Below, piece by piece: positions 1,828-30,161 of a stretch of DNA of 64,000 nucleotides (positions are counted from its first letter, which is position 1; every line of letters starts with the position of its first letter). The notes under the pieces were generated by a model that searched no databases, was not told where the DNA came from, and was given only the letters and a program-made list of their open reading frames with translations. Source of the stretch: Thermoanaerobaculia bacterium. Its GTDB lineage: Bacteria > Acidobacteriota > Thermoanaerobaculia > Gp7-AA8. The position numbers and the translations under genes were made by a program. Where the stretch lies: contig DASVQE010000052.1 of assembly GCA_036389275.1 (NCBI GenBank), positions 99,637 to 163,636 of the forward strand, given 5' to 3'.

Positions 1828-2220
1828 TCATATCAACTCGTCGATGCGCTTGCGCCGCTGATCCTGCTGCACGAGTGCCTTCTCAACCTCACGATCCTCA
1901 CGCTTGAGGTTCTGCGTGTCGGTCCAGCACGCACGCTTCTCGTCGCGCTCCTCCTTGCTGAGCATGAGTTTGTCCCGCTCCAGCGTGATGCGATCCTTGC
2001 GTCTGTCGCCGCCATCCCCGGTCATTTCGTTCTCCGGGTCGAGCTTGAGCATCTCCTCGCGCACCTCTTTCTTCTCCTCCGCGATCTCCGCAAGATTCTG
2101 GCGATCGATCTCGCGTCGCTCCGCGATCTCCTCATCGATGCGACGATGCTGCAGCTTGAGCACGGTTTCTTTCTCGCCGCTCAGCGCCGCGATGAGTGCG
2201 GCCTCGCTCGGGTTTGTCAT
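1828..2220 (-). CDS. Small charged coiled-coil protein
   Basis: 130-aa E/K/R-rich ORF immediately upstream of the ATPase on the same strand. Confidence 0.45.
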   Translation of the reverse strand: MTNPSEAALIAALSGEKETVLKLQHRRIDEEIAERREIDRQNLAEIAEEKKEVREEMLKLDPENEMTGDGGDRRKDRITLERDKLMLSKEERDEKRACWTDTQNLKREDREVEKALVQQDQRRKRIDELI

Positions 2221-3303
2221 CCTGCACCTCGAAAGACGGTCAGTGCGTCACTCGGGAAGACCCATTCGGTCGTTGCTGGATCGAAGAGCAGTTCGTACGC
2301 GAAGCGTGGTCGCAGTGGTTCTCGTTGGTTGCGTACAACGTCGATAAAGTGCCAACTCGTCATGCGCGGGAGCGTGCCCATCGAGCTGAAGACTTGCTGT
2401 GTCAGCGCGTGCGTGCTCACGACGCGCAGGAGCGCTGCATCGTCGCGGATCGGGTAGATGTCGATGCTTGGCGCATGACTGCCGAAGGCGTTGATCATTG
2501 CGCTTAACGCGGTGCCTTCGATGTGCAGAAACATTGGTGTGCCGATCGCGTTGAGCGGTCGGTACCGGATGATGTTCTGTCGGAACAAGCCGGTGTGGTT
2601 GAGCAGCGCGAAGGCTTCCTTCACGTACGATTTCCCGTTCGTCGGGAGGCGTCGCGCGAAGCGCGGCAGATACTCCCATGTGCGCTTCCCCAATCGTGCG
2701 TACACTGCCTCCCAGATCGCAGGCAAGCTCTGTCGCTGCTCCACACTCTCGAAGATCACGGGGATGAGTAGCGGCAGCCGCTCGACAATGTCCCAAACAT
2801 TGCGCATCAGCGCCGAGAATCGTCGGTGGCGTAGGATCAGGATCATTGGTCGCGAGATCTCGGAGCACCTGCCACCCATCGCGCGTCATGATGCTCGTGA
2901 TTCGTGTCGCCGTCGTTCCCTCAGCCTCCGCAAGGAGCGCATCGATCGCTGCTCGCTGCGTTCGCGGGATGAGGCAGTGCAGGTAGAGCGACTTCTCGCT
3001 TGGGCGGCTGACCGTCCATTCGCCGGCTATCGCGTACGGAAAGGTGGTCCATGCCGGCGCCGGGTTCTCCAGGAACAAATGCAAGTGCTCTAGGCCGAGT
3101 GCGCAGAACGAGACATTCGGATAGTAGAGCAGGTCATCCGCGAGTTCGGCTTGCCAGCGGTAGAGCGTACGCGCATCAGGCAGTGATGCTTCGGTGCGCG
3201 CGAACTCCTCGATGCCCACCGCCCGCTGTGTTCGATGGAGCACGCCAAGAAAGTGCAGAACGTTCTTGTTCACTCCGGCCGCCATGATGGTGAGCAGGGA
3301 CAT
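2217..3303 (-). pseudogene. Hypothetical protein, apparently frameshifted near 2880
   Basis: N-terminal 141 aa in the frame of ORF 2248..3303, then convincing coding continues in the frame of ORF 2217..2879. The original frame degenerates into low-complexity sequence after about 2880. Confidence 0.45.
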
Positions 3304-3393
3304 TCCACGTTTTTATAAAGCACCCGACGAGAAACATAACCAGTATGTCAGGTGGTGGATATATACCCGTACTTTCCGGATAGTAGGGTCATG
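3304..3393. promoter_or_regulatory. AT-rich divergent intergenic promoter region
   Basis: Unusually AT-rich stretch (ttttataaag … ggatatatac) between divergently oriented genes in an otherwise GC-rich context. Confidence 0.3.
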
Positions 3394-3828
3394 TCATGGT
3401 TTCACTACACGAAACACGAACGCCTGCAGCGGCGACGGCAAGTCCGCTTGGAGACCGCGGAGCGAGCCATCAAGGAGGCAAGCTCAAACTGGTACATGGT
3501 GCCAGGCATCGTTGAGCCGTGCATCGGCGACGCGCTAGAGGAGGCATACCTCTTTGAGGAGTACTTCGGGGAGCCAATGCCCACGCACCTGCGCCACGCG
3601 CTGCAGGTCGAAGTCGAGCTGTGGCAGCGTTTGATCCTCGCGATCAAGAATGCGAAGAACATCACCGAAGAGGAATACGTGAAGTACCTCCCGCGGGTGC
3701 GCGCCTACCTCGTCGCCGTCATCGACCTGCTCCAGGCAGAGCAGGAGATGATCACGAGCTGCCTCGTGCGCTACTACGAGCACATCGTGGCGACATCACG
3801 CGACGCTGCCCTGCGGTCGGGACTATGA
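3352..3828 (+). CDS. Hypothetical protein
   Basis: 158-aa ORF with protein-like composition. The start may be the internal M at 3394. Confidence 0.5.
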   Translation: MVDIYPYFPDSRVMSWFHYTKHERLQRRRQVRLETAERAIKEASSNWYMVPGIVEPCIGDALEEAYLFEEYFGEPMPTHLRHALQVEVELWQRLILAIKNAKNITEEEYVKYLPRVRAYLVAVIDLLQAEQEMITSCLVRYYEHIVATSRDAALRSGL

Positions 3829-3982
3829 ATGACGATCACTGGATCCTGACGTTGTACGAGCGCTATCTCGCACTCTTCGGCGATCCCGCTCCTTCCGAGC
3901 ATCCATTGCCGCTCCACAAGGAAGGATGAACGAATGGGTGGGGGGCGCAGGACCCCTTGTTGCGCCCCGCCATTCCCTCACG

Positions 3983-4974: not shown

Positions 4975-5366
4975 CATTTCGCTTAACGCCAATGTCAGGC
5001 GGATCAACGAAAGAACTAAATACTTCGCGCGCAACCGCTGCGGGTGAGAAGGTCGTGTGACCGCCACCCGCGGCAGTCGCATGCGCCGGCAGTGGTTGCA
5101 AAAAGCAACTCCTTCGGGCCTGGGCGTTGTCTCTTTCGTCGAACGCCGAGGGTATGTCGCGACGTCGACCGCCGATGGCTGCTGACGCATGAACGTCGGC
5201 ATGTCGTCTGCCGCCGCTTGGCAGCGGCGTGTCACGCGACCTTTATCAACTAGCAACGGTGATGCGAGATGGTGACGTTTGACATCCACAACTACGAGGA
5301 GAAGTTCCAGCAGGTAACACAGCAGGTGCTGCGCAGCGAGATCAGTCAGCGCAACAAGATCTCATC

Positions 5367-6575
5367 ATGGGCTACCGTGATGCATGCATCCTCCAGCAGA
5401 CCTGCGGGAAAGTACGCCTGATCCGCGCACTCGGCGTCCTGCTTCTCTGCGCGCGACGGCTCGTGAAGGATTTCGATCAGGCAACTCGTGATGACCTGCA
5501 GCGTCTCGTGAGCAACATGCTGACGAAGCAGCCGCCGTACAGCCCCGAGACGCTCGGCACCTACAAGGCAATCATCAAGCGCTTCTACACATGGCTCGCC
5601 GCGCCCACCGAATTCAATGCGCGAGCAGTCGCGCCGCCGATCGTGAACTGGATCACGACACACGTTCGCGCACGCGACAAGAAGAAGCTTCAGCGCAACC
5701 AACTCCTCTTTCCGTCCGACATCGAGCAAGTCATGAATGTCACGCAGAACGCACGCGACAAAGCGCTCCCCGCCGTCCTCTGGGAGACCGGCGGCAGAAT
5801 CGCGGAGATCGGTAACCTGCAACTCAAGCACCTCACGAAGACGGACGTCGGCTACACCCTGGAGGTTACCGGGAAGACCGGCACGCGGACCGTGCTCATC
5901 GTCAGCAGCGCACCCTTGCTCACGCTCTGGCTCAACGTGCATCCCTTCCGCGCCGATCCGGAAGCACCGCTGTGGGTGCACTACCAATTCAGCAAAGAGC
6001 CGCTGCAACTGAAGTACGACACGATCCGCAACATGCTCGTGAAGCAGTTCGCACGCGCAGGCATCCCGAAGCGGGTGTACCCACATCTCTTCCGCCACTC
6101 ACGCGCGACGTACGTCCTGGCCACCGGACTGATGACCGAAGCGTAAGCAAAGGCGTACTTCGGCTGGACACCGAACAGCGACCAACTCGCCACGTACGCA
6201 CACCTCCTCGCGAGCGACGCGAACGCGGCAATCCTGCGAGAAAACAAGCTTGTGCCAACGCGCGAAGTCCACGAGGAACTGCAGGCAAGGCAGTGCTACC
6301 GGTGCGCGGAACTCAACGCGAGCAATGCGGACTACTGCACGAAGTGCAACGCTGTGCTCAACCTGCAGAAGGCGTACGAGCACCAGCAGCTGCATGACGC
6401 GAAGGAGACGCTCCTCACCAGCATGTTCAGATTCTCGTGGAGCGAGGACTCGTGGATGACGCCGCGCGCGCCGTGCACGAAGCGGGTCTGGGGGAGACGC
6501 TCAAGCGTCTCGCCCTGCACCACTCAGGTGAGCAGAACATCGCCGCAAGCACGCCGACGCTTTCGCCGAACGTGA
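5367..6575 (+). pseudogene. Tyrosine recombinase (phage-integrase family) interrupted by an in-frame TAA at 6144..6146. C-terminal Zn-ribbon-like extension.
   Basis: N-terminal SAM-like domain. RHSRATY box II, then a TAA stop. The in-frame continuation reads KAYFGWTPNSDQLATYAHL (canonical catalytic-Tyr region), then CYRCAELNASNADYCTKCNAV (CxxC…CxxC). Downstream frames are scrambled. Confidence 0.75.
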
Positions 6576-6720
6576 ACAAGAACCACCTGCCGGTGAAACA
6601 AAAGCAGTGCTGTGAAACGAGAAGCGTGAAGAAAGACGAAGTCGTCCGGATTCAGGCAGTTACGTGCGCGTACACCCGCCGTGAACAGCGAGAGACTTCG
6701 CACAACGCGAAACCACGCGA

Positions 6721-6920: not shown

Positions 6921-6964
6921 AGCAAATCCCCATCACCCCGCAACGCCACCACGAGTAGAATTTC

Positions 6965-9900
6965 GTGTCACTCTACGGGAGGAGACAATTCGCAACGACG
7001 ACCACCAATAACCGCCACCACGATCCGCGCGGCAGCACCTGGCGCCGCTGGGACCTGCACGTCCACACGCCAAAATCGTTCGTCCAACACTACCCCGGCG
7101 GCGATACCCCCGCCGGATGGGAAGCCTTCCTCACGGACCTCGAACACCTCCCGCCAGACATCAAGGTGCTCGGCATCAACGATTACCTATTCATCGACGG
7201 ATACGAACGCGTCCTGAACGAAAAGCAGCAAGGGCGACTCGCGAACATCGACCTAATCCTGCCCGTCATCGAACTACGCCTCGACAAATTCGGCGGCACT
7301 GACTCGCACCTCAGCCGCATCAACTACCACATCATCTTCAGCAACGAACTCACGCCCACCGAGATCCGCGAGCAATTCCTCAACCTCCTCACCGCCGACT
7401 ACACGATCGGCGAACCATTCAACAACGTCATCAACACGACCACCCTCACGGAGCTAGGACAGCAACTCATCGACGCAACGCCACCAGCAAAACGCACGAG
7501 CGAACAGCCACTCACCGTCGGTTACAACAACCTCAACTTCCACCTCGCCAAGATCGAACAGCTCTTAGAGAACACGACGTTCACGAACAAGTTCCTCACG
7601 GCCGTAGGCAAAACCGAATGGGCAGACGTGAAGTGGCAACAAGGTGCCGCAGACAAACGCACGATCATCGACCGCGCTGACTTCGTCTTCGTCGCAGCGC
7701 AAACACCTGACCACTGCCGCAAGGCGCACGACGCACTGCGCGCCGAAGGAGTCAACCACCGACTACTCGACTGCAGCGACGCGCACTACCCCAGCAACAG
7801 CACACACAAAGACCGACTCGGCAACTGCTACACCTGGCTCAAAGCCGACACCACGTTCGACGGCCTCCGCCAAGTACGCCATGCCCCAGGAGAACGCATC
7901 TTTCTCGGGGACATGCCACCGAAGCTCCAACTCATCAAACAACAACCCACAAAATTCATTACCGACATCGAAATCCGCCGAAAGCCCTCCGCTCCGATAA
8001 CGGAGCAATGGTTCAACAACCAGCTGCCGCTCAACCCCGATCTCATCGCGATCATCGGCAACAAAGGAATGGGCAAGAGCGCACTCACCGACATCATCGC
8101 GCTGACGAGCAACGCCGAAGCAGACCCACAAACTTACGGCTTCCTGACCGAGCACAAGTTTCGCGACCGCAAAGACAACAAGGCACGACACTTCACCGCA
8201 ACCACCACATGGGCAAGCGGCGACGCCATCAACCGCGGGCTCGACGAGAACGTGCCGAGCGGCACCGTCCCCATGGTCAGGTACATCCCGCAAAACTATT
8301 TCGAAGCCCTGTGCAACGAAACCACGAACGCAGCACGCCTGCAGCATGAGCTCCGCAGCGTCATCTTCAGCAACCTCTCCGCAGCGCAACGAGGCAAGTT
8401 CGCCGACCTTGATTCACTCATCAAGGCGCACACGAACGAGGCGGCACGACACATTGACGAGCTACGGGCAGAACTACACACCGTCAACCGCCACATCGCG
8501 CAACTCGAACGCGATCTCTCAACGACAAAACGCAAAGAACTCGAAGACGCGCTCCAGCAAGCAGAGGCAGCGCTCGCAGCACACGACCAGAATCAGCCGA
8601 TGCCCGTTTCCGCACCTACGCAGCAGGCAAGCACGCCAGACCTCGACGCGACACGCAAGGAACGCGATGAACTCGATCAGCGCATCGCCGCGGAACGGCT
8701 CCACTTGCAGGATCTCACGAAACACGCACCCGCACCCGAAATCTTGTTGCGCGCTTTCGCACGCTGCAAGAGACGATTGCAAAACTCCGCACGAGCGTCA
8801 CGACCGACCTCCAGCAACTCGGCATGAGCTTCGAGCAACTGCTGCCCGCAAGCGTCAACCTGCAACCACTCGAAGAGCACACGGCGGCAACCGAAGAGCA
8901 AATTGCAACCACCGAAGCGCTCCTCGACGGCACCGACGGTCTCATCGCCACACATGCCGCGCTTCTCACGCGAATCGCCAAACTGCAGGACGCACTCGAT
9001 GCACCCGCCCGGGCATACCAGCAGTACCTCGATCACCAGAAGCAATGGGAGCAACAGCGCACCCGCATCATCGGCAGCACAGACACACCCGGATCAATCG
9101 AGTACCTCAAGGCACGACTCACCACAGTGCGCAACGCCCAAGTAGAACAGCTCGCGGCGCTCGATGCAGAACGCCTCGACCTCGCGCGCGCCATTCACGA
9201 GCAACTCCGCAGCATCACCACATTCCAAGCAACGCTCTACGCCCCCGCCGCAGAAAGGCTCGCAAATCATGCTGTCGTTCGAGCACAGCTGAACGTGAAC
9301 TTCACCAGCAAGCTTGTGGACACCGGACTCGCGCCACAGTTCATGAAGCGCATCAATCGAGCACGAATCGGCAAGTTTAGCGAGGAGCACGCGATGCGTG
9401 ACCACCTCACGCCCTTCGACCTTGACAACACCGACGACATCGAACAGCTCCTCCGTACCACTATCGAACTCCTTCACCAAAAACCGCATGGTGAACCGAG
9501 CGACATCGACGACGTGCAGCGACAGCTGCGCAAGGACGAGAAAGCAGAGGACCTGTACAACTTCCTCTTCGGGCTCGAGTACCTCGACCCACAATTCGCG
9601 CTTCGAATCAACGATCGCGAACTCGCACAACTCACCCCGGCGAGCGAGGCAGCCTTTTGCTCGTCTTCTACCTCGTCATCGACCAGGACGATCGGCCGCT
9701 CATCATCGACCAACCCGAGGAGAACCTGGACAACCAGAGCGTCTTCGAACTCCTCGCGCCCTGCATTACCGAAGCAAAGCGCCGGCGACAAATCATCATG
9801 GTCACGCACAACCCGAACCTTGCTGTCGTCTGCAATGCCGAGCAGGTCATCTGGTGCAGGATCGCGAAGGACACGGACCACGCCGTCACGTACGAGACCG

Positions 9901-10004
9901 GGAGCATCGAGAATCCCTCGATCAACAAGCACCTCGTCGACGTTCTCGAAGGGACGTGGCCCGCCTTCACGGACCGCGGACACAAGTACCATCAGTGGTC
10001 CTAG
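6965..10004 (+). pseudogene. PHP-domain phosphoesterase fused to an SMC/SbcC/RecF-like ABC ATPase with a long coiled-coil. The reading frame is broken twice (near 8740 and near 9650).
   Basis: N-terminal WRRWDLHVHTPKS (PHP). Walker A IIGNKGMGKSALTD. Coiled-coil middle. After the frame changes, Walker B/D-loop LIIDQPEENLD and H-loop IMVTHNPN. Three consecutive ORFs (6965..8827, 8824..10311, 9657..10004) join into one about 1010-aa protein. Confidence 0.75.
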
Positions 10005-10036
10005 GGCGCGCACTGGAGTGCTCGGTGCGGGCCGCG

Positions 10037-10833: not shown

Positions 10834-12810
10834 ATGACCGCTGCTGCGTTGCCCATCGCGTATGATCCGGAGCCTGATTCTCTCAGTGGCAGGCCAACGC
10901 TTTTCCAACTGCACGAGCAAACGCTGCTCGACCTCGCCGCGATCTCTCAGCTTACGGAAGAAACACCCGCGTCGCGTGTCAGCGAGACGGTCGCAAACCT
11001 CGCAGCCCTGCACGACACCGAACTCGTCAAGAATTTAGAAACACGTGCGGCGCTACTCGACAGCGAAGCAACATTCGTGGAGGAAGACCTTCGCGAGCGG
11101 GCAGCGCTCGTCCCGGATCTCAAAGCCCGGTACACGCGCCGAGCGGAGTTGCGGGACACGCAGGTATCACTGAACGAACAGATCGTGCGCGCACAAGTGG
11201 AGCTCCTCGCGCGCCGGCAAAAAGCTGAAGAAGAGCGGCTCGAACTCGAGTTGGAGCGCGTGCGCTCTGAGGAAGCATCACTCCGCGCGCAGAACGATTC
11301 TGACACCGGCTTAGACGATCAACCGAATTCACGGCAGCAGCGTGTCGCACAACTCCAACAGCGCCGTGAGGAGATCCTCAAGACAGAAGCATCAGCATTC
11401 GAACGGGAAGAGTATCTACGGCAACGATGGATCACCCGCACAGTGGCAGGATTTCTCCTTTGGCTTGGCTACGCCAGCGTCGTTGCCACCGGGTCGGTAC
11501 TCGCATTGATCATGAGCGGACGAAGGGCATTTGATCTTCGTCCGCTCGTAGCAGGCACACGTGCCATCGTCGCCTCAATCTTTCCCACCTTCCCAGCATG
11601 GTTCCGACTCTCCGTAACGATCATCTACGTGGCGTTCCTGCTCGCCGCGATCATCGGGGTATTCATCGCGTGCGATGCAATCCTACGAAAGCGTTGGAAA
11701 TGGGACGCGGAGAAGAAGTCACGCCCAGATGCGAGCGCCCAGATGACGCCGCAGGCGCTCACACCCCGAACCTATGCGCGGTTCGTCGCGCTGCTACCTT
11801 TCACCTTTCTTGGAGCGATCCTGCTCGTTGTCCTCACCATCGCTCCGACCTTCGGACTCCGCTCAGGTGATGACGCCAGTGTCCTCATGTCGATCTTCCC
11901 GAGCGTCGGGTACTCATTCATCGGCATCACCATCGCGTTTCTCGCGACCGGCGTATTCATGATGTATTTCATCCGTGTCATCGAGCCGCGAAGTACCCAA
12001 GGAGCGGTCCTGCGCCACTCATGGGAGTTTGCGATACCACCGCTGCTGCTCGTCACCGCCTTAGCCGTCGCACCCTATCAACTTTCGATCAGCGCGGGTG
12101 CTTGGCTCCCTTGGGCGGCCTTCATGCTCATGAGTTCTCTTGCACTCGCCTCCGGGCTCGTCTTCTACGGCATCTTCAAGGATGCGCGACGAGCACGCGA
12201 GCGCGTCGTACGTATCGAGAAACGCCTCCAGCGCCTCACGGGCGTTCCGGCTGATGACGATGAGGACACCGAAGAGGAACGAACGCCACTCGCGAGTGAG
12301 CGAGACTGGCTCCAAAGGGTGCTGCGTCGGGTCCGCTTCGGCCGCGTACCACGTTCCGCACAGGAAGCCCATCAACCCCCCGACCCGAACGCGAGCCAGG
12401 ACCTTCTTGCGCCGCCGCCACCGATTCCCATAACGATCCTCGTGCCCGACTACCGCGCGATCGATATGGTCGTCGCGCCGGAACTCGTCATGGCGATCGA
12501 GCAACACCGCGGCGCGCTTCGCCGCATCGATGCCGACCTGCACGAAACGCAAGCGGCGATCGCACAACTAGAACCACTCGTCGCGCCGGAGACAATGAGC
12601 AAACTTCGCGAGCGACGTCTACTGCTTCAGGGTATGAAGCTCGCGCTTGCCACACATCAAGAAGAACGGCGACAACATGCACGTATCGACCAAGAGCTCC
12701 TGCTGCTGAAAATCGCCACAACACAAAGCGCGACGCAAGCCGTCGCACCACTCATCGCGGCCGTCAGGCATCCACTCGCGCCAGGGCCCGCTGAAGGAGC
12801 GACGCAATGA
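10834..12810 (+). CDS. Membrane protein with N- and C-terminal coiled-coils and about 6 TM helices
   Basis: GGAGG Shine-Dalgarno 7 nt before the ATG at 10834. The ORF is open from 10591. Hydrophobic segments flanked by charged coiled-coil regions. Confidence 0.6.
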   Translation: MTAAALPIAYDPEPDSLSGRPTLFQLHEQTLLDLAAISQLTEETPASRVSETVANLAALHDTELVKNLETRAALLDSEATFVEEDLRERAALVPDLKARYTRRAELRDTQVSLNEQIVRAQVELLARRQKAEEERLELELERVRSEEASLRAQNDSDTGLDDQPNSRQQRVAQLQQRREEILKTEASAFEREEYLRQRWITRTVAGFLLWLGYASVVATGSVLALIMSGRRAFDLRPLVAGTRAIVASIFPTFPAWFRLSVTIIYVAFLLAAIIGVFIACDAILRKRWKWDAEKKSRPDASAQMTPQALTPRTYARFVALLPFTFLGAILLVVLTIAPTFGLRSGDDASVLMSIFPSVGYSFIGITIAFLATGVFMMYFIRVIEPRSTQGAVLRHSWEFAIPPLLLVTALAVAPYQLSISAGAWLPWAAFMLMSSLALASGLVFYGIFKDARRARERVVRIEKRLQRLTGVPADDDEDTEEERTPLASERDWLQRVLRRVRFGRVPRSAQEAHQPPDPNASQDLLAPPPPIPITILVPDYRAIDMVVAPELVMAIEQHRGALRRIDADLHETQAAIAQLEPLVAPETMSKLRERRLLLQGMKLALATHQEERRQHARIDQELLLLKIATTQSATQAVAPLIAAVRHPLAPGPAEGATQ

Positions 12811-13988
12811 CCGAACAGCCCACAACGACACCGACGACGCATGACACGGATTGGCATGCCGGGTACGAGGACGGGATTATCGGCCAGACGTGGCTTGAGC
12901 ACCATCGCATGCTCGGATTCGAGGCTGAGCGTGAACACGCCGTGGAACGCGGCGAGATCGAAAAGCGCATCGCGCGGGCACGTGCCGATCTCGCTACCGC
13001 AACGGAGGCAGCCAAGCGCGACGACGAGACATTTCGGAAGATCGAGCAACGACTGGCCGATGCGAGCGAGGACCGGGACCGGTACCCAAACCAGTACTCA
13101 CCATGGATGGGTGCCGGCTTTGTGATCTGCGCGATCGCGATCATGGCGGCCGATTTCCCCTTATCCCGCGCGATAGCGGAACAGATTCTTCACCGCAAAG
13201 CAGCAGCCATCTTCTCGCATGCGAATCTCGTCGCATGGGGCATCGTCGCCATGGGACTGTTCTTCAAGCTCATGGCCGATCCATTCATGAGGCCACGCTA
13301 CCTGCTGCCCCCATACCTGCGCCGAATCTCCGTCGCCATGTCTGTGATCATCGCCATGATCATTGCACTCGGGCTTGCCTCGGTGCTCGGCATGCTAGGC
13401 CTCTTTCGAGGCGATACCATGACGCGCAGCACACCAGGAACCGCCACACGTTACGGCAGCACGACAACGACCGCTCCCGCGGCGCCGCCGCCACAGGCGA
13501 CAGGCCTTGCAAGTGTGTTCAGCCAGGACGCTGGCACGGTCGCAAAAGTCACGTTCCTCGCTCTCGCGCTCGTGCTGCCGATTATTGGCGGCATCTTTGC
13601 CGCCACCGGCACGGCACGCATCCACAACGCAAAACAGCTCAAGCGGTTCCACCGCACACACGACGCTCGCAAGGAGGCGCACGAGGCAATTGCACGCCAA
13701 GTGCAGGAACGAACCGCCGAAGTTGCGGTTCATGAGCGCGACTTGGCAACCGCGCAATCGCACGCGGTCCTCTCCGATAAGCGGTACCACACGTATCTGC
13801 ACGGGTACGAGCGCGGCCTGTGCGCTGCACAACCGAGCACGGGCATCGCCGAACAAATTCTCCAGTTTCTTCATCGGTGGGTGACGGCCGCGCACCAACG
13901 CGAGAACTTCATCAGAACCACCCTGGTCGCGAACCAGCAACGCGCCCGCACGGTGTGGGAGAACCAATGCGACGAGCAGGCATCTTAA
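12807..13988 (+). CDS. Membrane protein with coiled-coil segments
   Basis: ATGA overlap with the upstream gene. Several TM helices. Confidence 0.55.
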   Translation: MTEQPTTTPTTHDTDWHAGYEDGIIGQTWLEHHRMLGFEAEREHAVERGEIEKRIARARADLATATEAAKRDDETFRKIEQRLADASEDRDRYPNQYSPWMGAGFVICAIAIMAADFPLSRAIAEQILHRKAAAIFSHANLVAWGIVAMGLFFKLMADPFMRPRYLLPPYLRRISVAMSVIIAMIIALGLASVLGMLGLFRGDTMTRSTPGTATRYGSTTTTAPAAPPPQATGLASVFSQDAGTVAKVTFLALALVLPIIGGIFAATGTARIHNAKQLKRFHRTHDARKEAHEAIARQVQERTAEVAVHERDLATAQSHAVLSDKRYHTYLHGYERGLCAAQPSTGIAEQILQFLHRWVTAAHQRENFIRTTLVANQQRARTVWENQCDEQAS

Positions 13989-14743
13989 GCCTTCTGCTGC
14001 TCGCGTCCTGCACGATGTGCGAGGGACCGGAACCGCCGAAACCTCCGGCACGCACGTACTTCGTCTTCCTCGATCTCACGCGGAGCCTCAACGATGCACA
14101 GCAGCAATCGGTCAACGAGCGGATCAATGACCTCTGCCGTGGGATTCCTGGTCGCTCGCGGCTTACGGTGCTACCGCTTGGCGGTTACGTCGCGCGCGCG
14201 GGCGTGCTCCTCCATGAAGAACTACCAGACGATAGTTTCGTCGACGGCGAACGCGACCTTGCAGATCGCCGGGCCGCCTTGCCCGGTGAGATCGCGACGG
14301 CAGCGCAGAACTACAACGCGAGCATCACGGACAAGAACTTTCTCAAGAAGACCTGCATCTCGCATGCACTCCACGAGGCACAACAGCGCATCGCAACGAG
14401 TGGTAGCCAAGAACCTGCTGAGATCATCTTCATTAGCGACATGCTGGAAGACTGTCCAACATCAGTGCTCGGCGGATCGCTATCGCTGGAAAAGCCCGAC
14501 ATTCACGAAGAACTCAAAAGAGCACAAACACTCGATCGACCCCTTCCCGACCTGCGCGGAGCCAACATCACAGCGATCATTCCTGAAACCGGGCCAACGG
14601 CGACCAAGACCCCACAACCAAGCCTGCCAGAGCTGGAGTCGTTCTGGGGAACGATCTTCAAAGGCTGTCACACCGCGAGCTTCTCACTCGGAACCAGCAT
14701 TCCGAGGCGGCTACTTCCTTCGGAGCCGAAGGAAGATGAGTAG
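13967..14743 (+). CDS. Lipoprotein, possible degenerate vWA-like fold
   Basis: Signal peptide plus lipobox LLLLASC. YFVFLDLTRSL … EIIFISDMLED. Confidence 0.5.
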   Translation: MRRAGILSLLLLASCTMCEGPEPPKPPARTYFVFLDLTRSLNDAQQQSVNERINDLCRGIPGRSRLTVLPLGGYVARAGVLLHEELPDDSFVDGERDLADRRAALPGEIATAAQNYNASITDKNFLKKTCISHALHEAQQRIATSGSQEPAEIIFISDMLEDCPTSVLGGSLSLEKPDIHEELKRAQTLDRPLPDLRGANITAIIPETGPTATKTPQPSLPELESFWGTIFKGCHTASFSLGTSIPRRLLPSEPKEDE

Positions 14744-14871
14744 GACGGCGTTCGGCCGACTGCACTGGACAGAATGCGGCTCAGCGCTGATTTGCTAAAT
14801 AAGCAAACGGAGGAGTAATCCCACCGCAGGGACGATACTGTTCAGGGTGTTCGCGATGGCTTCCGGCCGGA

Positions 14872-15141: not shown

Positions 15142-15206
15142 GGAATGGCAGCGTTCACGACACTCCTCATGTGAGGTCCGAGTTATCCAGAAGAAGGAGT
15201 TTCGCG

Positions 15207-15833: not shown

Positions 15834-15838
15834 CCCAT

Positions 15839-16765: not shown

Positions 16766-16769
16766 GTTC

Positions 16770-18158: not shown

Positions 18159-19333
18159 CCACTCCCAACTGGCCGCATCTCGTCCGATACGCACCGGTCT
18201 TCGGCGTGCTCACGCTCCTCGCGGTCTGGGGTGTGTGCGGGATGTTTGCTGGTTGGCGCGTACAACGGTGGTGGTGCGGTGCAGACAAGAAACCCAGCAC
18301 GTCGAAATTCCAACTCTTCTTGTGGACGACGGTCGTCCTATTTGCTTACAGCACGATCACGGCACGGTTCATCCTCAAAGGATTGGCCGTGGCGATCGAC
18401 CCCAAGTGTGGCACGCTACCGAGCAACATTCTCGTAGTCCTTGGGCTGAGCGGTGCTACCGCGGCCGTCGCGAAGGGCATCACCGTGGGATACATCAACT
18501 CTGGCCGTCTGGCCAAAAACAACGACGCCGCGCCGGGCGCGCCGACGGGCGGCGTGCTCACCTCTGATGAGGGTGAGCCAGATTTGAGCAAATTGCAGAT
18601 CACGGCATGGACGTTCGTCGCGATCGTGATTTACCTCATCCAGTTTTTTCGAGCCTTGCCCTCGATTCCAGGCGACGGGATTGACGCCCCGGGATGTGCG
18701 GTTCCAGACATCGATGCCACGCTCATGGTGCTCATGGGCCTCAGCCAAGGAGCCTACGTCGGTAAGAAACTCGTAACGATGGACACGCCGCGTATCGCGA
18801 GCATCACGCCGCAGCGCGGCCCCATCGGTACGGTCGTGACCGTCCACGGCGCATCCTTCGGCGCGGCACAGCAGGGCAGCACGATACTGATTGATGGACA
18901 GCCGGTGCCGCTCGTCGCGACGTCCTGGGCTGATACCCAAATCACCTTCAGCATGCCGCTAGCGCAGCCATCCGGCATCGCGTGGAGTCCTGGGCCGCAC
19001 ACGATCAGTTTGCTCGTCGGTGGGCGCGCCGCGGAGGGCGCGCTCGCCTTCACGCTTACCCCGCCCACCATCACCGCGATCGCGCCCGGCATCGCAAAAC
19101 CAGGCACTGCGGTCACACTCTATGGCTTCTTTGGCGCCCCAGATCCGACAAGTGTCGTGCTCATGGACGGGACCGTGCTGCCCGCTGGTGTCAGTTGGGC
19201 GCAAGACACGATCACGGTCTTGATTCCTAGTCAGTATGTAAGCGGTGCCGCGTGGCAGCCGAATCAGAACGTGCAGCTCAGCGTACGCGTCCAAGGCATC
19301 GTGAGCAATGCGATGCTCGTCACTATTACCTGA
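18155..19333 (+). CDS. Membrane protein (4 TM) with C-terminal IPT/TIG-like Ig-fold domains
   Basis: ATGA overlap with the upstream gene. TM segments, then repeated ITAIAPG…GTAVTLYG / ITPQRGPIGTVVTVHG motifs. Confidence 0.6.
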   Translation: MTTPNWPHLVRYAPVFGVLTLLAVWGVCGMFAGWRVQRWWCGADKKPSTSKFQLFLWTTVVLFAYSTITARFILKGLAVAIDPKCGTLPSNILVVLGLSGATAAVAKGITVGYINSGRLAKNNDAAPGAPTGGVLTSDEGEPDLSKLQITAWTFVAIVIYLIQFFRALPSIPGDGIDAPGCAVPDIDATLMVLMGLSQGAYVGKKLVTMDTPRIASITPQRGPIGTVVTVHGASFGAAQQGSTILIDGQPVPLVATSWADTQITFSMPLAQPSGIAWSPGPHTISLLVGGRAAEGALAFTLTPPTITAIAPGIAKPGTAVTLYGFFGAPDPTSVVLMDGTVLPAGVSWAQDTITVLIPSQYVSGAAWQPNQNVQLSVRVQGIVSNAMLVTIT

Positions 19334-20960: not shown

Positions 20961-21873
20961 ATGCGTCGAGTTCTCATCGCGCTCCTGCTGCTCGGCGTGC
21001 CAACGCTCCATGCGTCAGGCCCGAAGCCCTGCGCTGATACCGGCGAGTCATCATCGACACGAACGATCACGCCGAATTTCGGGACAGCGATGAAGGCTGA
21101 GGACGTACCAAAGAGCATGCGCCAGGCTGCAGTGAACGGCTGGAGCGTCTCCTACGTCCCACGGAACGAGCGTACTCCCGATGGTCTGGCGGTGATGGCT
21201 GCACGGCGGTTCACGTTCGGTAAGAAGACGTTCTACCTGCTCACGGTCCGCGGCGAGATGAGTATCTTCAGTACTGCATGCGAGCGTGACTGGTGTGCGG
21301 AGTTCACATGGTGGCCGGCAACGGCGACGTTCGTTGCTGACGCGGCGCGGCCGCGCCAGGTGGTGCCGGGGCGATGAGTGGTACTTGCTCACCGCCGATG
21401 GCCCGATTCTCGTTGCCACCGACGCGTTCAGCGAAGGCTACGTCTGGGAGGAGGATTGCTCATTGCGAGCGCTCACGGATGCCGCAACCGGCCAGGCGGT
21501 CCGACCACCGACAACGACTGCCGCGCCGAAGGCTCCTGCGCCATCACCCTTGCCTTCGCACATGGAGAGCGTGTGCGCACCGAGCGAGACCGTCGCGTGC
21601 TTCGAGGCGCGCAGCCTGCGCGTCACCGACACCGCGGGACGCCCGGTACCGGTCATCGCGCGCGATGGTCGGACGGCAAGCTTCTCACATGGACCGGTGA
21701 GCGCTGTCGTCGTCGCTGTAACTGCTACGTGCGCGACCGGGAATGTCTTACGTGCGCGCATCACGAGCACTAGCGAGTACCAGGTCACGTTCCGCAACAT
21801 TCACACGAACAAGACGCAGCAGGTTGCGGTCACGCCGAAGGGAGCCACCGGGGCGACACTCCCCTGCGACTAG
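20961..21873 (+). pseudogene. Secreted hypothetical protein with an apparent frameshift near 21350
   Basis: aaggagg Shine-Dalgarno plus ATG and a signal peptide. Coding continues convincingly in the frame of ORF 21286..21873 without an available start codon. Confidence 0.4.
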
Positions 21874-21943
21874 CCCAGTCCGGAGCTTTTTTCGCTTGAA
21901 CACGCCGCCGATACAAACTCCTGAAGCGGCAGCACAAGAATCC

Positions 21944-23597
21944 TCAGATCTCGTAAGTCCGTTGCCCAAGCCATCGATTCAATGTCTCGTTCACGCCTGA
22001 ATCGCTCGTCGGCAGTCGCTCGCGTACCGCCTCCTCAAACATGTTTAGCAATGTACCCTGCCGTCGACGAGCGAGGATCTTGAATACCTCGACAATCATC
22101 GCCGGCTCGTCGTGCACGAGGAGATCGATGGTTGATCCCGACCGACCCACTCTCCTCGATTGCGCGGACGAGAAGCCCACTCTCGCTGCCACGTGCGGCC
22201 TCGTACGCGATGCTGGCCCACGCGGCTGGTGATGTCGCATGTTCGCCGGCACGTTCTACGTAATCGATGACGCGCTGTAGGTCACCGCGCGCTGCGAGCG
22301 TAGCAACCACATACTCGAAGAGTGGCGAGGTGCGCAGCCGTGGCAAAATACCATCAGCGATCCGCCATAGAAGATTGTTATCCTCATATGTCAAACCGAG
22401 TGCGCTAACGAGTAGCGGCAAGTCCTCATCATCTATTGAGTCTATGTGCGCTAGAAGCCATTCAACAGTCTCGTCAAACAGCGACGCGATCGGAAACGCT
22501 TCGTCGAGCGTGTCAAATACCGCGTAGTGATGCGGACACGCGACGACGGCGTGAGCCGCTATACCGTCCCGACTCCAATAATCGCGCAGCCGATCTAGCG
22601 AATCCGAGTTGCGCGTGACCCATCGCGAACGAACCAGATGCAAAAGTGCTTCGCGAAATACCCGTCGATCAGGCGCAAAATCTTCAAAGATTCTGCGTAC
22701 CAGGATCTCGCGTGCTGGCCCCTTGCGGAGTCGTTGAAGAATCACGATGATTTGCAGGAGCAAGACCTCATTGGCGGATGACGGATCGTTGCGCAAGGCA
22801 TCGACGTCCTCGCGCGTCCGATAGTCAACGCTCGTTGCGGAGTGCGAGGGCAGAACACTAACGTTTGGGATCTCGGTTGTCTCGGAAATTTGCGGCGTTC
22901 GTTCGGAGAGAACGATTGAAGTACTTTCGGCGGCAACCACCTCACGAAGCGCGACTGCTGTTGCAGCACGATGGCGTTCCTCCTGAATCGCACGCACGAC
23001 CCCAAAACGTTTCTCTGGCGCCATGCCAATGAGCGCGCGATGCGCGTGGTCATCATCGGGCGAAACCACCCGGTCGGATTGCTTAGCAGTCAAGGCCTGC
23101 AGTAGTTCTGCAGGAGTAGCCGTGGTAATCACATGTCCCACGACGCCGTAGCCATTAACAACTATGGTGCTTGGACGCTGTGGTACGTCGAGGTTGACGC
23201 CGAAACTCTTTGCCGTTCGCTTGCCCAATGCGGTTGACGCGAACGGGTGAAGATCAAAAGTCGCGCCGCTCCAGCCCGTGATGCTGTCATAGATCGTACT
23301 GAGACGTCGGTAGAGTCCCCATCCGTCGTATAAGACACGCTCGATCTGCACAGCATCCAAGTCGCCTGCCGCGTGGCCTTGGACGAAGTCGATGAACGTC
23401 CTTCGCGTGAAGGTGAGTACGCCGTTACTCCACTCGGTGTCCTCGGGGATCGTGTCGCGGAGCCGATCGCAGAACGCGAAAACAACCCGCGTGCTGTTTT
23501 CAGCTGCACCCCACTCGCGTGTGGCGACACGGTGGGAGTTTTCTCGTGCGAGCCACGCCAGCCACAGCGTCCATGCGAGGTTGAACTGATCACTGGT
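21944..23597 (-). pseudogene. Large hypothetical protein, frameshift near 22170
   Basis: ORF 22035..23651 loses protein-like character at its C-terminus while ORF 21944..22252 carries a clean C-terminal continuation. The likely start is the internal M near 23597. Confidence 0.45.
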
Positions 23598-23621
23598 CAT
23601 GCGCGCAAAAGCTTTAAACCC

Positions 23622-24260
23622 ATGGACATCCTCCACGCCAACATGGGACATGAGTTAAAGACCAGGTATCTCCACGACCGCTCGAAAACCCTACGCGTGT
23701 CATGGGAGCCACGCGTGCGCTATCGCAGGATCGAGATACGAGATGAATCTCGGTGGAGCGACTACTACTGCAACCTCACCCTCACCGACGATGACACTTC
23801 GATTGCTCTCGTCGTGACGCTGCGCAACCGCGATCGGCTGCAACAGCGTGGAGCCGCGAACGCCATTCACTTCGATCACCCCAAGTTCCCTGAGTACGCG
23901 ATCCGATTCGGGGAACTCCACTGCCGAAGAATGCCTGAGATCGCCGCACAAATCGATACCACCCTAGCCAAACTTCTCGACCGTCCCCCGCCGTGCAGCA
24001 TCGGTGGTTTCGACTACGAACGCCACTGGCGACCAGCGGCGCGCACGATCCTGCCCACCGTCGTCCGTGCGCGGCAAACGATCGATCGTGCAACCTGTCC
24101 CAGCGTCGGCATCAACGATATCGTCGACGGCCTGCTCCAGAACCGCACGCCTTCTACGACAGCATTCGCGTGTCGGCCGACTACGAAAGTACCAAAAACC
24201 TCTTTGGCTGAACGCCGGCCCTGCCTGAGAGCTTTCTGGTGTGTACCCGCCACATCGTGA
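23622..24260 (+). CDS. Hypothetical protein
   Basis: Divergent from the upstream minus-strand gene across an AT-rich spacer. Protein-like for about 180 aa. Confidence 0.3.
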   Translation: MDILHANMGHELKTRYLHDRSKTLRVSWEPRVRYRRIEIRDESRWSDYYCNLTLTDDDTSIALVVTLRNRDRLQQRGAANAIHFDHPKFPEYAIRFGELHCRRMPEIAAQIDTTLAKLLDRPPPCSIGGFDYERHWRPAARTILPTVVRARQTIDRATCPSVGINDIVDGLLQNRTPSTTAFACRPTTKVPKTSLAERRPCLRAFWCVPATS

Positions 24261-26433: not shown

Positions 26434-26776
26434 GTCGGTCGAGACGACGAGTGTCGAGCGCACGAGCGTGGACGGCACTCTCATCCTCGCCCTGACGGAA
26501 ACGATCAAGATCAACGCTCTCACTGGCGCGCGCGAACTGACGAAAGACGAGGCGCGCGGGACGACGAGCGATGGTCGCGTCATCGACGACAAGTCCCGCC
26601 TTCGCGTCTGCGAGACGTGTCGCAGCTTGCTTTCGGCGGCGCGGGAGTGCGCAGTCTGTTTGCGTTCCGTCTGCGGACGGTGCGTCCGCCGCGTCCAGCG
26701 CAACGGTCAAGGATTGGAGGTGTGCACGTCATGTCGGTGGCGCACGTTGCCGAGCGAACTCCTGCGACTCTCGTAA
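26393..26776 (+). CDS. Cys-rich zinc-finger protein (4x CxxC)
   Basis: CETC…CAVC…CGRC…CTSC. Confidence 0.45.
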   Translation: MTALPPNPYLPTNESVETTSVERTSVDGTLILALTETIKINALTGARELTKDEARGTTSDGRVIDDKSRLRVCETCRSLLSAARECAVCLRSVCGRCVRRVQRNGQGLEVCTSCRWRTLPSELLRLS

Positions 26777-28130
26777 CGGACGAGCAACTTCGCCGCGAGC
26801 TCTCCTTCGCCGAGGAGTACGACCTCTCGCGCTACGACCGGTGGGTCGCAAGCCTCGTGCAGACCATCGGCAGCGCACCAGGGGCGGTCGCGCACCAGCG
26901 ACTGCGCGCTGCACTCGTGGCGCGAATACAGCCCTACCACGCATGTCATGAGGCGGTTCCGTTCGCAACACTCGACGGGCTCGATCGCGGCGGCCTCCGC
27001 CTCGGCGCGCAGCTCGCCGATCAGTCGCCCGTGACGCTCGGCCGCGAACTTGAGCATGTCCTCGTCTACGGTCCGACCGGCAGCGGGAAGTCGCACCTCC
27101 TGGCGCATCTCCTTCGCTCCGTGCTCGAACACCAGGAGAGGGCAATCGTGCTAGACGCCAAAGGCGATACGCCATGGATGCTGCAGCACGACGCGCTCTC
27201 CCTCAATGATCTCGAATTTTCCCTCGTCGCGAGCCCACCGTACGCATCACCGACAGAGTTCATCAATCGCTGGCTGATGCACTTTCGCGAATCCTTCTGG
27301 ACCGCCGAACTCCAGAGCGCGGTGCTCCTCCCGATCCTGCGCGAGATGATCCACCCCGGCCGCGCTGCGTCACTTGCCGAGATCGTCGACCGCATTCGGC
27401 TGCGCGACAAATCGCCAGCAGGCAAAGCCGCTGCTGATCGTTTGGAAAGTATCAGCCTCTCGTACCCGAAACTCTACGAGAGCACGGCGGACCGCTGGAG
27501 CGAACTGCATGAGCAGTCGCTCTACTGCCCGACCATCGGCACGCTGACGCCGGCAACGCGATTCGTCACGTGGCTGCTCATCATCGAGCGCTTCGCGTAC
27601 CTCCAGCACCGAGCGCACCGTGATCGCGTGCACACCGTCGTCTTCCTCGACGAAGCGCAGACGAGTTTGAGCAAGCGCACGCAAACGATCTCTGGCCTGC
27701 CGAGCACGCCCGTGCAACTCCTTCCTACGACGCGCGAGCATGGCCTGCAGTTCGTCGTTGCAACGCCATCATGGACGGAACTCGACCCGCTCGTCCTCTC
27801 CCAATTCCAGGTCCAGATCGCCCTGCAGCCAAGTGATGGGCGCGAACTTGATTCCATCACGAAAAGCTTTCGCCTAACACCAGCGCAGGCGCGGCTCACC
27901 AGCAGCATGCAGCGCGGCACCGCGCTCGGGAAGATTCGCGGTATCGGTCAGCCCTTCCTCTTCACGTACGAACCATTTCGCGAGCAGAAGGATATCGATC
28001 CCGCAACCGTTAGTGCAGCACGCGCGCGAGCTGAACGATTTTGCGATGCGTCCAACAGCGCAGCGAAGGAAGGGATCGCGAGCAACGGGCAGCCGACGCC
28101 GGCGGAGAGTCCGCGCCGTCATCCTCACCA
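26731..28130 (+). CDS. FtsK/HerA-type P-loop ATPase (putative DNA-transfer ATPase). The 3' end is uncertain.
   Basis: GGAGG Shine-Dalgarno plus ATG at 26731. Walker A VYGPTGSGKSHLL, Walker B VVFLDEAQ. The frame becomes low-complexity after about 28120, so there may be a frameshift fusion with the downstream wHTH gene. Confidence 0.65.
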
Positions 28131-28778
28131 CCGTCACGCGTTGCGCCGGTGGTGGAACAAACCAATCCGCCTAACACTGCAAAAACGCTTTCGCTCAACG
28201 AGCGCGAGCGCAAGATCCTCACGTACATCGCACAACGTGGCGTCCTCCTCGTCACCGAACTCCACGCAGAGCTGCACCTGCACGCGATGCAAGAAAGCAG
28301 AACGAGAAAAAACCTGCGCGCCCTCGGCCTCATCGAAGAGCATCGCATCACGACACGATCCGGCCGCGGCGGCACAAGCGTCGCCCTCACACTCACGCAA
28401 AAAGCACACGAGGAACTCCACCTACCAAAAGCGCATCTCGGCAAAGGCGGACCAGCGCACCGATACTACCTCCGATGCTTGCGCGATCATCTCGGCGCCA
28501 CACTCGAAGTGCATGAGACAGACGCGGTCGTTGCGTACAACAGCAAATGCCACGAACGACTTCAGAAGGCACTCGGGATCGCGGTCAACGACGGCGACAC
28601 AATCGGGATCGAAGTCGAAGTGAGCAACCCGCGGATCACCGCAACGCGTATCGCCGAACGTAACAAGCATTTCGCCCACATCATCGTTGCGACCTTGCCG
28701 CAGCACCTCGCGGCATTGCGCTCAACACACCCGCACGTCGTCAGCATCCTCGATCTCCTTGACGAGGTGCGCGCATGA
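28041..28778 (+). CDS. Winged-helix DNA-binding protein, replication-relaxation-like
   Basis: LSLNERERKILTYIAQRGVLLVTELHAELH…LGLIEEHRITT. The N-terminal 40 aa overlap the ATPase frame. Confidence 0.45.
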   Translation: MRCVQQRSEGRDREQRAADAGGESAPSSSPPSRVAPVVEQTNPPNTAKTLSLNERERKILTYIAQRGVLLVTELHAELHLHAMQESRTRKNLRALGLIEEHRITTRSGRGGTSVALTLTQKAHEELHLPKAHLGKGGPAHRYYLRCLRDHLGATLEVHETDAVVAYNSKCHERLQKALGIAVNDGDTIGIEVEVSNPRITATRIAERNKHFAHIIVATLPQHLAALRSTHPHVVSILDLLDEVRA

Positions 28779-29044
28779 ATCGTGAGGAAGCACTCGCTGT
28801 GCTCGCGCAACTTGAAGTGCAGCGACTCGACACACTGGCTCGACTTATCGCTATTGAAGTCGGCAACGTCGAACGTGAGGATCGCCTGCTCAGCGTGCAG
28901 GAAGCGGCGCCGATTTTGGGCGTCACGATCGACTGGCTGTACCGCCACGCTGACGACTTCACCTTTACCATCCGCCCAGGACCAGGACAGGTCCGCTTCA
29001 GCAATGTCGGCATCCAGGAGTATCTCCGCCAGAAGCGACGGTAG
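28775..29044 (+). CDS. Excisionase/AlpA-like HTH protein (Xis)
   Basis: LSVQEAAPILGVTIDWLYRHA. ATGA coupling. Immediately upstream of the integrase. Confidence 0.6.
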   Translation: MNREEALAVLAQLEVQRLDTLARLIAIEVGNVEREDRLLSVQEAAPILGVTIDWLYRHADDFTFTIRPGPGQVRFSNVGIQEYLRQKRR

Positions 29045-29100
29045 CTACGGTTTCGCTACTGGACCTTCGTACAACGCAGACGGTTGTTTGTTCCTGAACT

Positions 29101-30161
29101 ATGCGTGGTGATGGGCGCCTCTTCCGACGAGCACGTTCACCGTTCTGGTGGATGAGCTACTACCTCGACGGTCGCGAGTATCGAGAAAGCACCGGCACGA
29201 CGGAAGAGAAACAAGCGCGCAAGGCGCTGCGCCTGCGCCTGCAGGAAGTCGCCAACGACAAGAGCGGCATCCAACCGTTCCTCGGTCCCGGCGCGAGCGC
29301 ATCAACGACCTGCTCGATGAGTTGGCCCAGGACTACCGCGTCCGCGCGAAGCTCTCAGCGACCGTCGTCTCGCACCTCAAACGTATCCGCGCACGCTTCG
29401 GTACTGAACGCGCAGCGCAACTCGACGCCAAACAGATCGACTCCTACATCGCTGAGCAACTCGAAGCCGGTGTCGCTCCAGCAACGATCAACCGTGGCAC
29501 CCAACTCCTTAGCCAGGCGTATAACCTCGCGCTCCTGCGCGGCAGGCTCACGAAGAAGCCGCACATCAGAAAGCTCCCGGAGAAAAACATCCGGCAGGGA
29601 TTCTTCGAACACGATCAGTTCCTCGCAATCATCGAGCACCTCCCCGAGCACCTGCGCGACTACTGCCGTTTTGCGTACCTTACCGGCTGGCGACGGGGGG
29701 AATGCTCCAGCCTCACGTGGGAAGACGTTGACCAACGCTCGCGACTCATCCACCTGCGACCGGAGCGCAGCAAGAACGGCCACGCGCGCAAAGTCGCACT
29801 CGAAGGAGAACTGTGGGAGATCATCCAGCGCCGCTTGAGCGAGCGCGTAGTGACGCGCAAGAGCGGCGCGACGACGATGCTGCGCTATGTCTTCCACCGC
29901 GACGGACACCCTATTGGCGAGTTCAAGAAGTCCTGGGCGACCGCGTGCAACGCAGCAGGGCTCGGGCACAAGCTCTTCCACGACCTCCGCCGCACCGCCG
30001 TCCGTAACATGGTCCGCGCGGGCGTTCCTGAGAGCGTCGCGATGAAGATCAGCGGACACCGCACCCGCGCCGTCTTCGACCGGTACAACATCACCGACGA
30101 ACGAGACCTTCGCGACGCGATGCTCAAGACACAGATATATCTGCAGGAATCGGCGCGATGA
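29101..30161 (+). pseudogene. Tyrosine recombinase/integrase with a frameshift near 29285
   Basis: Arm-binding-like N-terminus (GDGRLFRRARSPFWWMSYYLDGREYRESTGT) in one frame, then the core (LTGWRRGE…HDLRRT…GHRTRAVFDRYN catalytic Tyr) in another. Confidence 0.8.

Follow-up and report, generated by a model that had tools for sequence, protein, structure and literature searches.

Disrupted core genes in a tRNA-Met-linked genomic island of an uncultured Thermoanaerobaculia bacterium suggest early decay of an integrative element

Results and Discussion

Here, we describe a window of 64,000 nucleotides (nt) from a metagenome-assembled genome (MAG) of a Thermoanaerobaculia bacterium from soil (GCA_036389275.1, contig DASVQE010000052.1, positions 99,637 to 163,636), the proteins of which match exactly the NCBI records HEX81709xx (locus tags VF824_106xx). 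The left part of the window is occupied by an island adjoining a tRNA-Met gene, and at least 12 lesions were found in the window, 11 of 12 of which delete nucleotides or create a stop codon. They comprise deletions of 1, 2, 7, 9, and 964 nt, one insertion, and one C>T nonsense substitution. The most probable explanation, to which we assign a probability of about 0.82, is that an integrative element at the 3′ end of tRNA-Met had its core genes knocked out by genuine mutations and is at an early stage of decay in place. The genes hit by the lesions encode two tyrosine recombinases, TrwB-like and HerA-like DNA-translocase ATPases, a TrlF-family ATPase, a 362-amino-acid (aa) helix-turn-helix (HTH)-like protein, and a secreted protein.

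The original prediction had placed eight disruptions, one of them tentatively, in island genes while the long genes of the host backbone were intact. This clustering proved to be correct: seven of the eight sites were confirmed against intact relatives, and a hidden Markov model (HMM) found five displaced frame exits in the island and none at 39–64 kb. It is an ordinary observation in the sense that the phenomenon is known, since horizontally acquired DNA is enriched in pseudogenes (PMC522871).

Detection of Lesions

The reality of the lesions was judged at the level of assemblies (JGI, ENA, NCBI-TPA, and Logan; at least two runs). Positions 1–48661 of the window were 100% identical, without gaps, in JGI 3300034173 Ga0334925_000017, ENA ERZ27253125 k141_577635, and Logan SRR10953297_1006. 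The contigs of a second run, SRR10948745, were likewise 100% identical and cover positions 21371, 28104, and 29296. In addition, the exact 620-aa truncated TrlF product is encoded on another contig of 10–20 kb. The record P0002, considered as a variant strain with the same frameshift, was rejected as such; it derives from the same JGI contig and differs in the first residue.

Intact alleles were found through the 90%-identity protein clusters of the fragments, and the contigs carrying the longer alleles were then aligned to the window. The clusters contained alleles of 1015 and 1071 aa versus the fragments of 620 and 115 aa, 362 versus 196 aa, and, for the two integrases, 450 versus 259 aa and 355 versus 279 aa. 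Altogether, eight island genes have intact alleles in other samples. The relatives used for lesion calls share 77–95% DNA identity with the window. The closest of them, L010 (Logan SRR30105155), is 95% identical to positions 1–9991; L015, from the same sample SRR30105155, is 93% identical to 24266–28778 and 82% identical to 20973–21875; and L011 is 83% identical to 28922–30142. The contig L012, which is 80% identical and carries the 1071-aa TrlF allele, served as the outgroup for TrlF substitutions. Thus, about 16.6 kb of the window have an intact reference (1–9991, 20973–21875, 24266–28778, and 28922–30142). This stretch holds 12 lesions, about 0.7 per kb; intact orthologs are in frame at all 12 positions, and every referenced gene of at least 248 aa is broken.

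The reading frames were also analyzed with a three-periodic second-order Markov model that was trained on island open reading frames (ORFs) and Viterbi-decoded; a separate model was trained likewise on 39–64 kb. The island HMM left a frame far from its stop codon five times: at about 2795 on the minus strand (547 nt before the old-frame stop) and, on the plus strand, at 8745 (82 nt), 9657 (654 nt), 28107 (516 nt), and 29293 (545 nt). The model caught approximately half of the confirmed lesions. When the ORF fragments were compared with Pfam, most gave no match, and the search was informative only for the integrases and the TrwB-like P-loop.

Limits of the Island

A tRNA-Met gene was predicted by ARAGORN at 38982–39058 (minus strand). 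A direct repeat of 89 bp at 38938–39026, taken as attR, holds the 3′ 45 nt of this tRNA together with the downstream hairpin. Its partner, attL, is located upstream of the window at −1726..−1639 (4349–4436 of the contig L005) and is 95.5% identical to attR over 89 bp. The island therefore spans about 40.7 kb (about −1.7 to 38.9 kb), of which about 39 kb are inside the window; the extent of 2.2–30.2 kb that had been assigned to the disrupted region was too narrow. The GC content is 0.60–0.63 up to about 39 kb versus 0.68 beyond. Thus, the flanking repeats over the tRNA 3′ end, two encoded tyrosine recombinases (Pfam PF00589, both disrupted), the deviant GC content, and the variable gene content together characterize the region as an island.

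A Logan contig of 40,673 bp has both of its ends within the two repeats. It was considered as an excised circle, and this was rejected: at k=31, the assembly graph would be interrupted there anyway by an exact repeat of 52 bp.

An alpha/beta-hydrolase gene is located at −1466..−729 (L005 4609–5346), between attL and approximately −707, where homology to the element of the relative starts. Since this gene is outside the shared homology, the left end of the island also bears lineage-specific cargo.

Lesions in the Left Part of the Island

The gene of a HerA/DUF87-like ATPase (642..1826, minus strand) is truncated by a 964-bp deletion at 787/788, which cuts the protein from 643 to 394 aa, with residues ~348–643 gone. 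The 643-aa HerA-like protein of L010 aligns only by residues 1–347, at window 1826..786, and positions 2794–3757 of L010 are missing in the window. The deletion junction shows a 2-nt microhomology. Comparison with L010 also revealed that a 248-aa gene has lost 2 nt at a point about 137 nt before the window starts.

A 362-aa gene with an HTH-like N-terminus, to which no function was assigned, occupies 2217..3303 on the minus strand and is interrupted after 2805 by the loss of 2 nt (GCGC[GC]). Residues 1–168 of the intact allele (P0009, L010) align at 3303..2800 in frame −2, and residues 163–361 align at 2819..2223 in frame −3; the disruption predicted at about 2880 corresponds to this deletion.

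The most heavily damaged gene is that of integrase 1 (5272..6612, plus strand), a pseudogene of a XerA-like tyrosine recombinase with a C-terminal zinc ribbon, in which five lesions were identified in comparison with L010. A deletion of 9 nt after 5273 removes the start codon, single nucleotides are deleted after 5357, 6429, and 6576, and a TAA stop codon is present at 6144–6146. The latter, which had been noticed from the sequence, corresponds to CAA in the 95%-identical L010 and is therefore a C>T nonsense substitution. It falls upstream of the catalytic Tyr (..LATYAHL), and the Pfam Phage_integrase match ends at profile position 144 of 172, before that residue. The intact 450-aa allele (P0024, L010 8297–9649) aligns with the window as four pieces in three frames.

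Downstream, the fragments 6965–8716, 8717–9635, and 9636–10004 (plus strand) represent one gene over three frames, a pseudogene of the TrlF family with a PHP domain and an ABC-type ATPase (6965..10004). The single-nucleotide deletions after 8716 and 9635 account for the disruptions predicted at about 8740 and 9650. The joined product of 1013 aa matched the NCBIfam profile NF045780 with an E-value of 4.4e-188 and 628 bits (cut-off 350), residues 22–1010 aligning with profile positions 1–944 of 944 in a single stretch, and such a full-length match was obtained only after repair of the two frameshifts. The repaired protein has an N-terminal PHP-type HxH motif, a Walker A motif, a long coiled coil, and an SPGERG signature with Walker B and H-loop. 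Alleles in one frame were found in L010 (1015 aa), in L012 (1071 aa), and in a Rhodothermales MAG (L016, 65% identical).

Two further observations were made in this part of the island. The plus strand of window 7001–10000, where the TrlF gene with its long coiled-coil region is located, is strikingly rich in A and C (GC skew −0.18 to −0.29, AT skew +0.27 to +0.38). In the N6/N4 DNA methyltransferase gene, indels of 5 and 2 nt relative to the relative's copy were found around the start (window 3926–3980, after 3931 and 3976); the two copies have different start codons and differ in the first ~15 residues, and both ORFs are open.

Thus, the list of disruptions in the original prediction holds for seven of its sites but is incomplete: it missed those at 787/788, 5273, 5357, 6429, and 6576, as well as the 2-nt deletion upstream of the window.

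Lesions in the Right Part of the Island

A gene of a secreted 303-aa protein (20961..21873, plus strand) is split into ORFs of 138 and 162 aa by an insertion of 1 nt at 21368–21371, where GGG became GGGG. This additional G at 21371, the disruption expected at about 21350, is seen in DNA alignments against both L014 and L015. The fused protein matched P0027 (296 aa, 76% identity, residues 1–303 on 1–296) and P0028; the alignments with the representatives, of 296 and 297 aa, cover the full length. After repair, the junction lies within PGDE(W/F)Y, a motif of the 296–303-aa homologs in which P136, G137, D138, E139, and Y141 are invariant.

A TrwB/VirD4-like ATPase of the FtsK-HerA superfamily with a C-terminal winged-helix region is encoded at 26731..28778 (plus strand). 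One nucleotide is deleted after 28104, so the disruption that had been listed as possible at about 28130 is real. Residues 1–459 of the intact 687-aa allele from L015 align at 26731..28107 in frame 1, and residues 470–686 align at 28137..28772 in frame 3. A 408-aa ORF of L011 also reads across the break. In the same 83% relative (L011 1–1911), a frame change was observed in the TrwB-like gene as well, residues 61–193 of the repaired protein aligning on L011 5–427 (frame 2) and residues 258–676 on 649–1890 (frame 1); it may represent independent decay in another lineage or a two-gene arrangement.

Integrase 2, the tRNA-proximal tyrosine recombinase (29101..30161, plus strand), has a net deletion of 7 nt at about 29296, which had been predicted at about 29285. 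The deletion separates the 62-aa arm-type N-terminus of the 355-aa protein from its core. In the intact 355-aa allele (P0022, L011), residues 1–66 align at 29101..29298 in frame 1 (89% identity), and residues 63–353 align at 29280..30152 in frame 3 (90% identity).

A second ORF of the HTH_3 type, which was called by no gene caller, is present at 19385–19675 (minus strand) and shares 81% protein identity with the 82-aa regulator of L015. Its first ~17 codons contain three 1-nt gaps (after 19588, 19615, and 19638; net −3). The ORF may be a damaged regulator, or the gaps may be alignment noise.

The remaining predicted site, at about 22170, concerns a 538-aa ORFan on the minus strand (21944..23651; 538-aa frame at 22035–23651) with a candidate frameshift at ~22130–22170. 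A search of 5.8 billion proteins with the repaired 568-aa query recovered only the query itself. The GC content at the first, second, and third codon positions is 0.71/0.65/0.26 in the last 31 codons of the ORFan, 0.64/0.36/0.67 in the overlapping frame that ends at 21944, and 0.66/0.46/0.60 in the gene body. In the final ~96 nt, both the coding score and these values come to favor frame −1 over frame −2. A frame switch at 22130–22170, caused by a 1-nt insertion near 22140, is plausible from the codon statistics, which a small, separate gene in overlap would explain just as well.

Accessory Modules and Host Backbone

Two modules of the island appear intact. The middle accessory module (10834..19333, plus strand) encodes proteins of 658, 393, 258 (lipoprotein), 208 (tail-protein-like domain), 308 (Trypsin_2), 462, and 392 aa (TIG), and all its HMM segments end at their stop codons. 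The L015 alignment covers the region to ~10.3–10.5 kb and resumes at 19.4 kb, with nothing in between; therefore, the 9-kb module is missing from the 93–95% relative. The relative from SRR30105155 also carries another integrase (390 aa, Phage_int_SAM_5) in place of integrase 2 of the window. The missing module and the different integrase indicate that this element family is mosaic. A frameshift suspected at 13.9–15.3 kb, where gene callers disagree, was rejected: the lipoprotein gene is complete there and is followed, after a spacer of 460 bp, by a new gene whose product has a signal peptide.

The second module is a cargo cassette between integrase 2 and the tRNA (30250..38661, plus strand), in which all ORFs appear intact and which is the best-preserved part of the island. 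It encodes two ParB_N-like proteins (weak PDC-M38A matches), a 501-aa SNF2 helicase resembling the helicase half of ZorD/DpdE, a DndB/DpdB-like protein, a 529-aa protein with a weak radical-SAM match, and a 508-aa MORC-like protein with HATPase_c_3. The Pfam coverage was 21–288 of 290 for SNF2-rel_dom, 2–109 of 110 for Helicase_C, and 1–301 of 338 for DndB. Matches to PADLOC were present, and no complete defense system known to PADLOC was matched by the cassette.

The HMM showed no premature frame exit at 10.8–19.3 kb or 30.2–38.7 kb. The integrity of both modules is judged from their ORF structure, as they lie outside the stretch with an intact reference. About six HMM-detectable lesions would be expected in the 17 kb of modules at the density of the core, and the contrast between core and cargo is thus probably real as far as reading frames can tell. 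The clean tRNA-proximal cargo and the clean 9-kb middle module suggest that the decay is confined to the element core and is not island-wide.

The host backbone beyond the tRNA (39150..64000), used as a control, contains no disruptions, and the HMM found no frame exit away from a stop over 39–64 kb. Malate synthase (aceB, 45123–46709, plus strand) and isocitrate lyase (aceA, 46728–48011, plus strand) have full-length domains, and complete domains were found in a vWA/YfbK-like protein (49209–50996, minus strand), a 1053-aa PD40/Omp85 protein (52637–55798, minus strand), and the further ORFs of an M28 peptidase and a YkuD transpeptidase (complete Pfam domains). On the other side of the island, just outside attL (L005 1–3308), a giant ORF of 6725 aa, the product of which has Big/RHS/YD-shell domains, precedes a pentapeptide-repeat protein; this ORF is unbroken over ~20 kb and is thus a useful internal check for random indels introduced by assembly. 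A suspected backbone disruption at 61.9–64 kb was rejected, as the region is taken up by a single secreted ORF, of 704 aa or more, that continues past the window end. A 1072-aa ORF antisense to aceB-aceA (45042–48260, minus strand) was discarded as a spurious open frame of high-GC DNA; the genuine genes are encoded on the plus strand.

Origin of the Lesions

The breakage of both recombinases and both translocase-type ATPases would leave the element unable to excise or transfer. Selection on the core of such an element works through its own transmission; once the element was grounded, all of the core would be released to decay together. This process would run under the deletion bias usual in bacteria, the larger genes being hit first and some of them repeatedly, whereas the host backbone, and apparently the two accessory modules, would stay under purifying selection. 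In plasmids, pseudogenized mobility genes mark the loss of mobility (PMC11229322), and both grounded prophages and recruited mobile elements are documented (PMC6379469, PMC8987985).

The timing of the decay was estimated from TrlF. With L012 as the outgroup, the window lineage has 44 synonymous and 12 nonsynonymous substitutions, versus 41 and 15, respectively, in the lineage of the intact L010 allele. In the broken genes, as in the intact ones, the differences concentrate at third codon positions. Since the TrlF substitutions are still mostly synonymous, the decay is recent; a neutral divergence of ~0.3% would be enough to accumulate the observed indels with no visible excess of nonsynonymous changes. 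Thus, the decay of an integrated element proposed in the original prediction is supported by the heterogeneous lesions and by the intact alleles elsewhere, but the relaxed selection proposed along with it is not yet visible in the substitutions.

A composition-specific sequencing or assembly error in the lower-GC island, which had been offered as the other explanation of the clustering, is very improbable. It might be argued that all the records may trace to a few Illumina runs of one project, that the evidence was read from assemblies, and that the island differs in GC content from the backbone (0.60–0.63 versus 0.68). However, at least four assemblies made by different assemblers agree without gaps at 100% over 1–48661, contigs of the second run span 21371, 28104, and 29296, and the truncated 620-aa TrlF recurs on another contig. 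The lesions are of many kinds and include the C>T nonsense substitution and deletions of 2, 7, 9, and 964 nt. The island has 33 homopolymers of at least 5 nt, and all nine small indels are more than 8 nt away from each of them; the lesions at 8716, 9635, and 28104 concern single non-repeated bases. Moreover, the two 8.5-kb island modules of the same GC content are clean. That the breaks are functional, through programmed ribosomal frameshifting, stop-codon readthrough, or viable split genes, is scarcely credible. According to one report, in-frame stops under purifying selection occur widely in bacteria (PMC7918605), and the substitutions in the broken TrlF still look constrained. Yet the homologs at 95%, 93%, 83%, 80%, 77%, and 65% identity are unshifted and read in one frame at these positions; the shifts occur in both directions and in sizes of −1, −2, −7, and +1 with no common slippery motif; and integrase 1 additionally lacks a start codon and contains three frameshifts.

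Another explanation accepts the mutations as genuine and attributes them to selection: the host lineage would have profited from the knock-out of costly or toxic functions (excision, transfer, and TrlF) and kept the useful cargo, which would be domestication and not drift. It agrees with the breakage of every referenced core gene of at least 248 aa, with the two lesion-free 8.5-kb modules, one of them a defense-like cassette beside the tRNA, with substitutions that show no neutral phase, and with the intact state of small referenced genes, including the N6/N4 methyltransferase. However, selection needs one hit per gene, whereas the repeated hits, five in integrase 1 and two in TrlF, are what neutral decay after the first hit predicts, and longer genes have, roughly in proportion, more hits. 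In addition, the modules were judged to be intact from ORF structure. We consider selected inactivation unlikely. A bolder and rather doubtful scenario is that a short burst of mostly deletional indels, with at least 12 lesions and no visible rise in nonsynonymous changes, grounded the element while the cargo, a module of secreted proteins and the uncharacterized cassette beside the tRNA, stayed intact. If this contrast is real, host-level selection may have been capturing a possibly new defense system on a freshly inactivated element, or else an indel-prone process may have been specific to the core.

Several points weigh against decay in place as we describe it. Twelve small referenced core genes (34–274 aa, including the N6/N4 methyltransferase) have no lesion, whereas roughly four lesions would be expected in them at ~0.7 per kb. 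At least two hits per gene with no nonsynonymous excess imply a fairly high ratio of indels to substitutions, which fits, but does not demonstrate, a neutral divergence of ~0.3%. Since the modules lack an intact reference and about half of the lesions escape the HMM, further lesions may be hidden there. The site near 22170 has codon statistics on its side and no homolog. The evidence is at the level of assemblies, in which minor intact alleles may be hidden, and several of the assemblies probably share read sets and are not fully independent.

Comparison With Known Elements

The island resembles degraded, that is, grounded or cryptic, integrative elements and prophages in its linkage to a tRNA, the flanking direct repeats, the atypical GC content, the deletion bias, and the pseudogenization of integrase and transfer genes by frameshifts, a nonsense substitution, and deletions, with cargo apparently retained and the backbone intact. 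Unlike them, it belongs to no characterized family, most of its genes are ORFans, its host is an uncultured Thermoanaerobaculia MAG, and its decay is very early, with substitutions that are mostly synonymous. Among ten island proteins compared with PHROGs, the tail-protein-like domain of the 208-aa protein was the only match, with no capsid, portal, or terminase, and a scan of viral contigs with the TrwB-like protein gave no relative. With respect to integrative and conjugative elements, the scanned ORFs, which represent part of those in the island, yielded only a TrwB_AAD_bind/TraD-like P-loop (weak, E-values of 3e-8 to 4e-6) and the HerA/DUF87 ATPase, and neither a relaxase nor VirB4.

Integrase 2 is similar to the P4/lambda-type tyrosine integrases that act at tRNA 3′ ends: it has arm-type N-terminal, Int_N/SAM-like, and Phage_integrase catalytic domains, and the 89-bp repeat flanking the element rebuilds the 3′ end of tRNA-Met. 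It differs from them in the frameshift between the arm domain and the core and in its position 8.8 kb from the tRNA, with the cargo cassette in between.

The TrlF family of AAA-like ATPases (NF045780) is named for trlF of the temperature-restricted locus trlGFR of Photorhabdus (PMC7554251). The family is also related to the anti-phage protein Ppl. Whereas trlF of Photorhabdus sits in a trlG-trlF-trlR operon, the TrlF gene of the window is a pseudogene in a mobile element and adjoins an integrase. Pfam and NCBIfam scans, which covered only some of its neighbors, gave no match to TrlG or TrlR.

Implications

Eight island genes of this MAG should be flagged as pseudogenes, as NCBI and JGI list separate hypothetical proteins in their place, such as the 620- and 115-aa fragments of TrlF. 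Split ORFs in metagenomic islands can be resolved cheaply by seeking longer alleles in the 90%-identity cluster. The general picture remains unchanged, the enrichment of pseudogenes in acquired DNA being long established. The element described here would provide a clean case of very early mobile-element decay in an uncultured lineage of Acidobacteriota, with intact sister copies available for comparison, and its tRNA-proximal cassette stands out as the part most likely retained for the benefit of the host.

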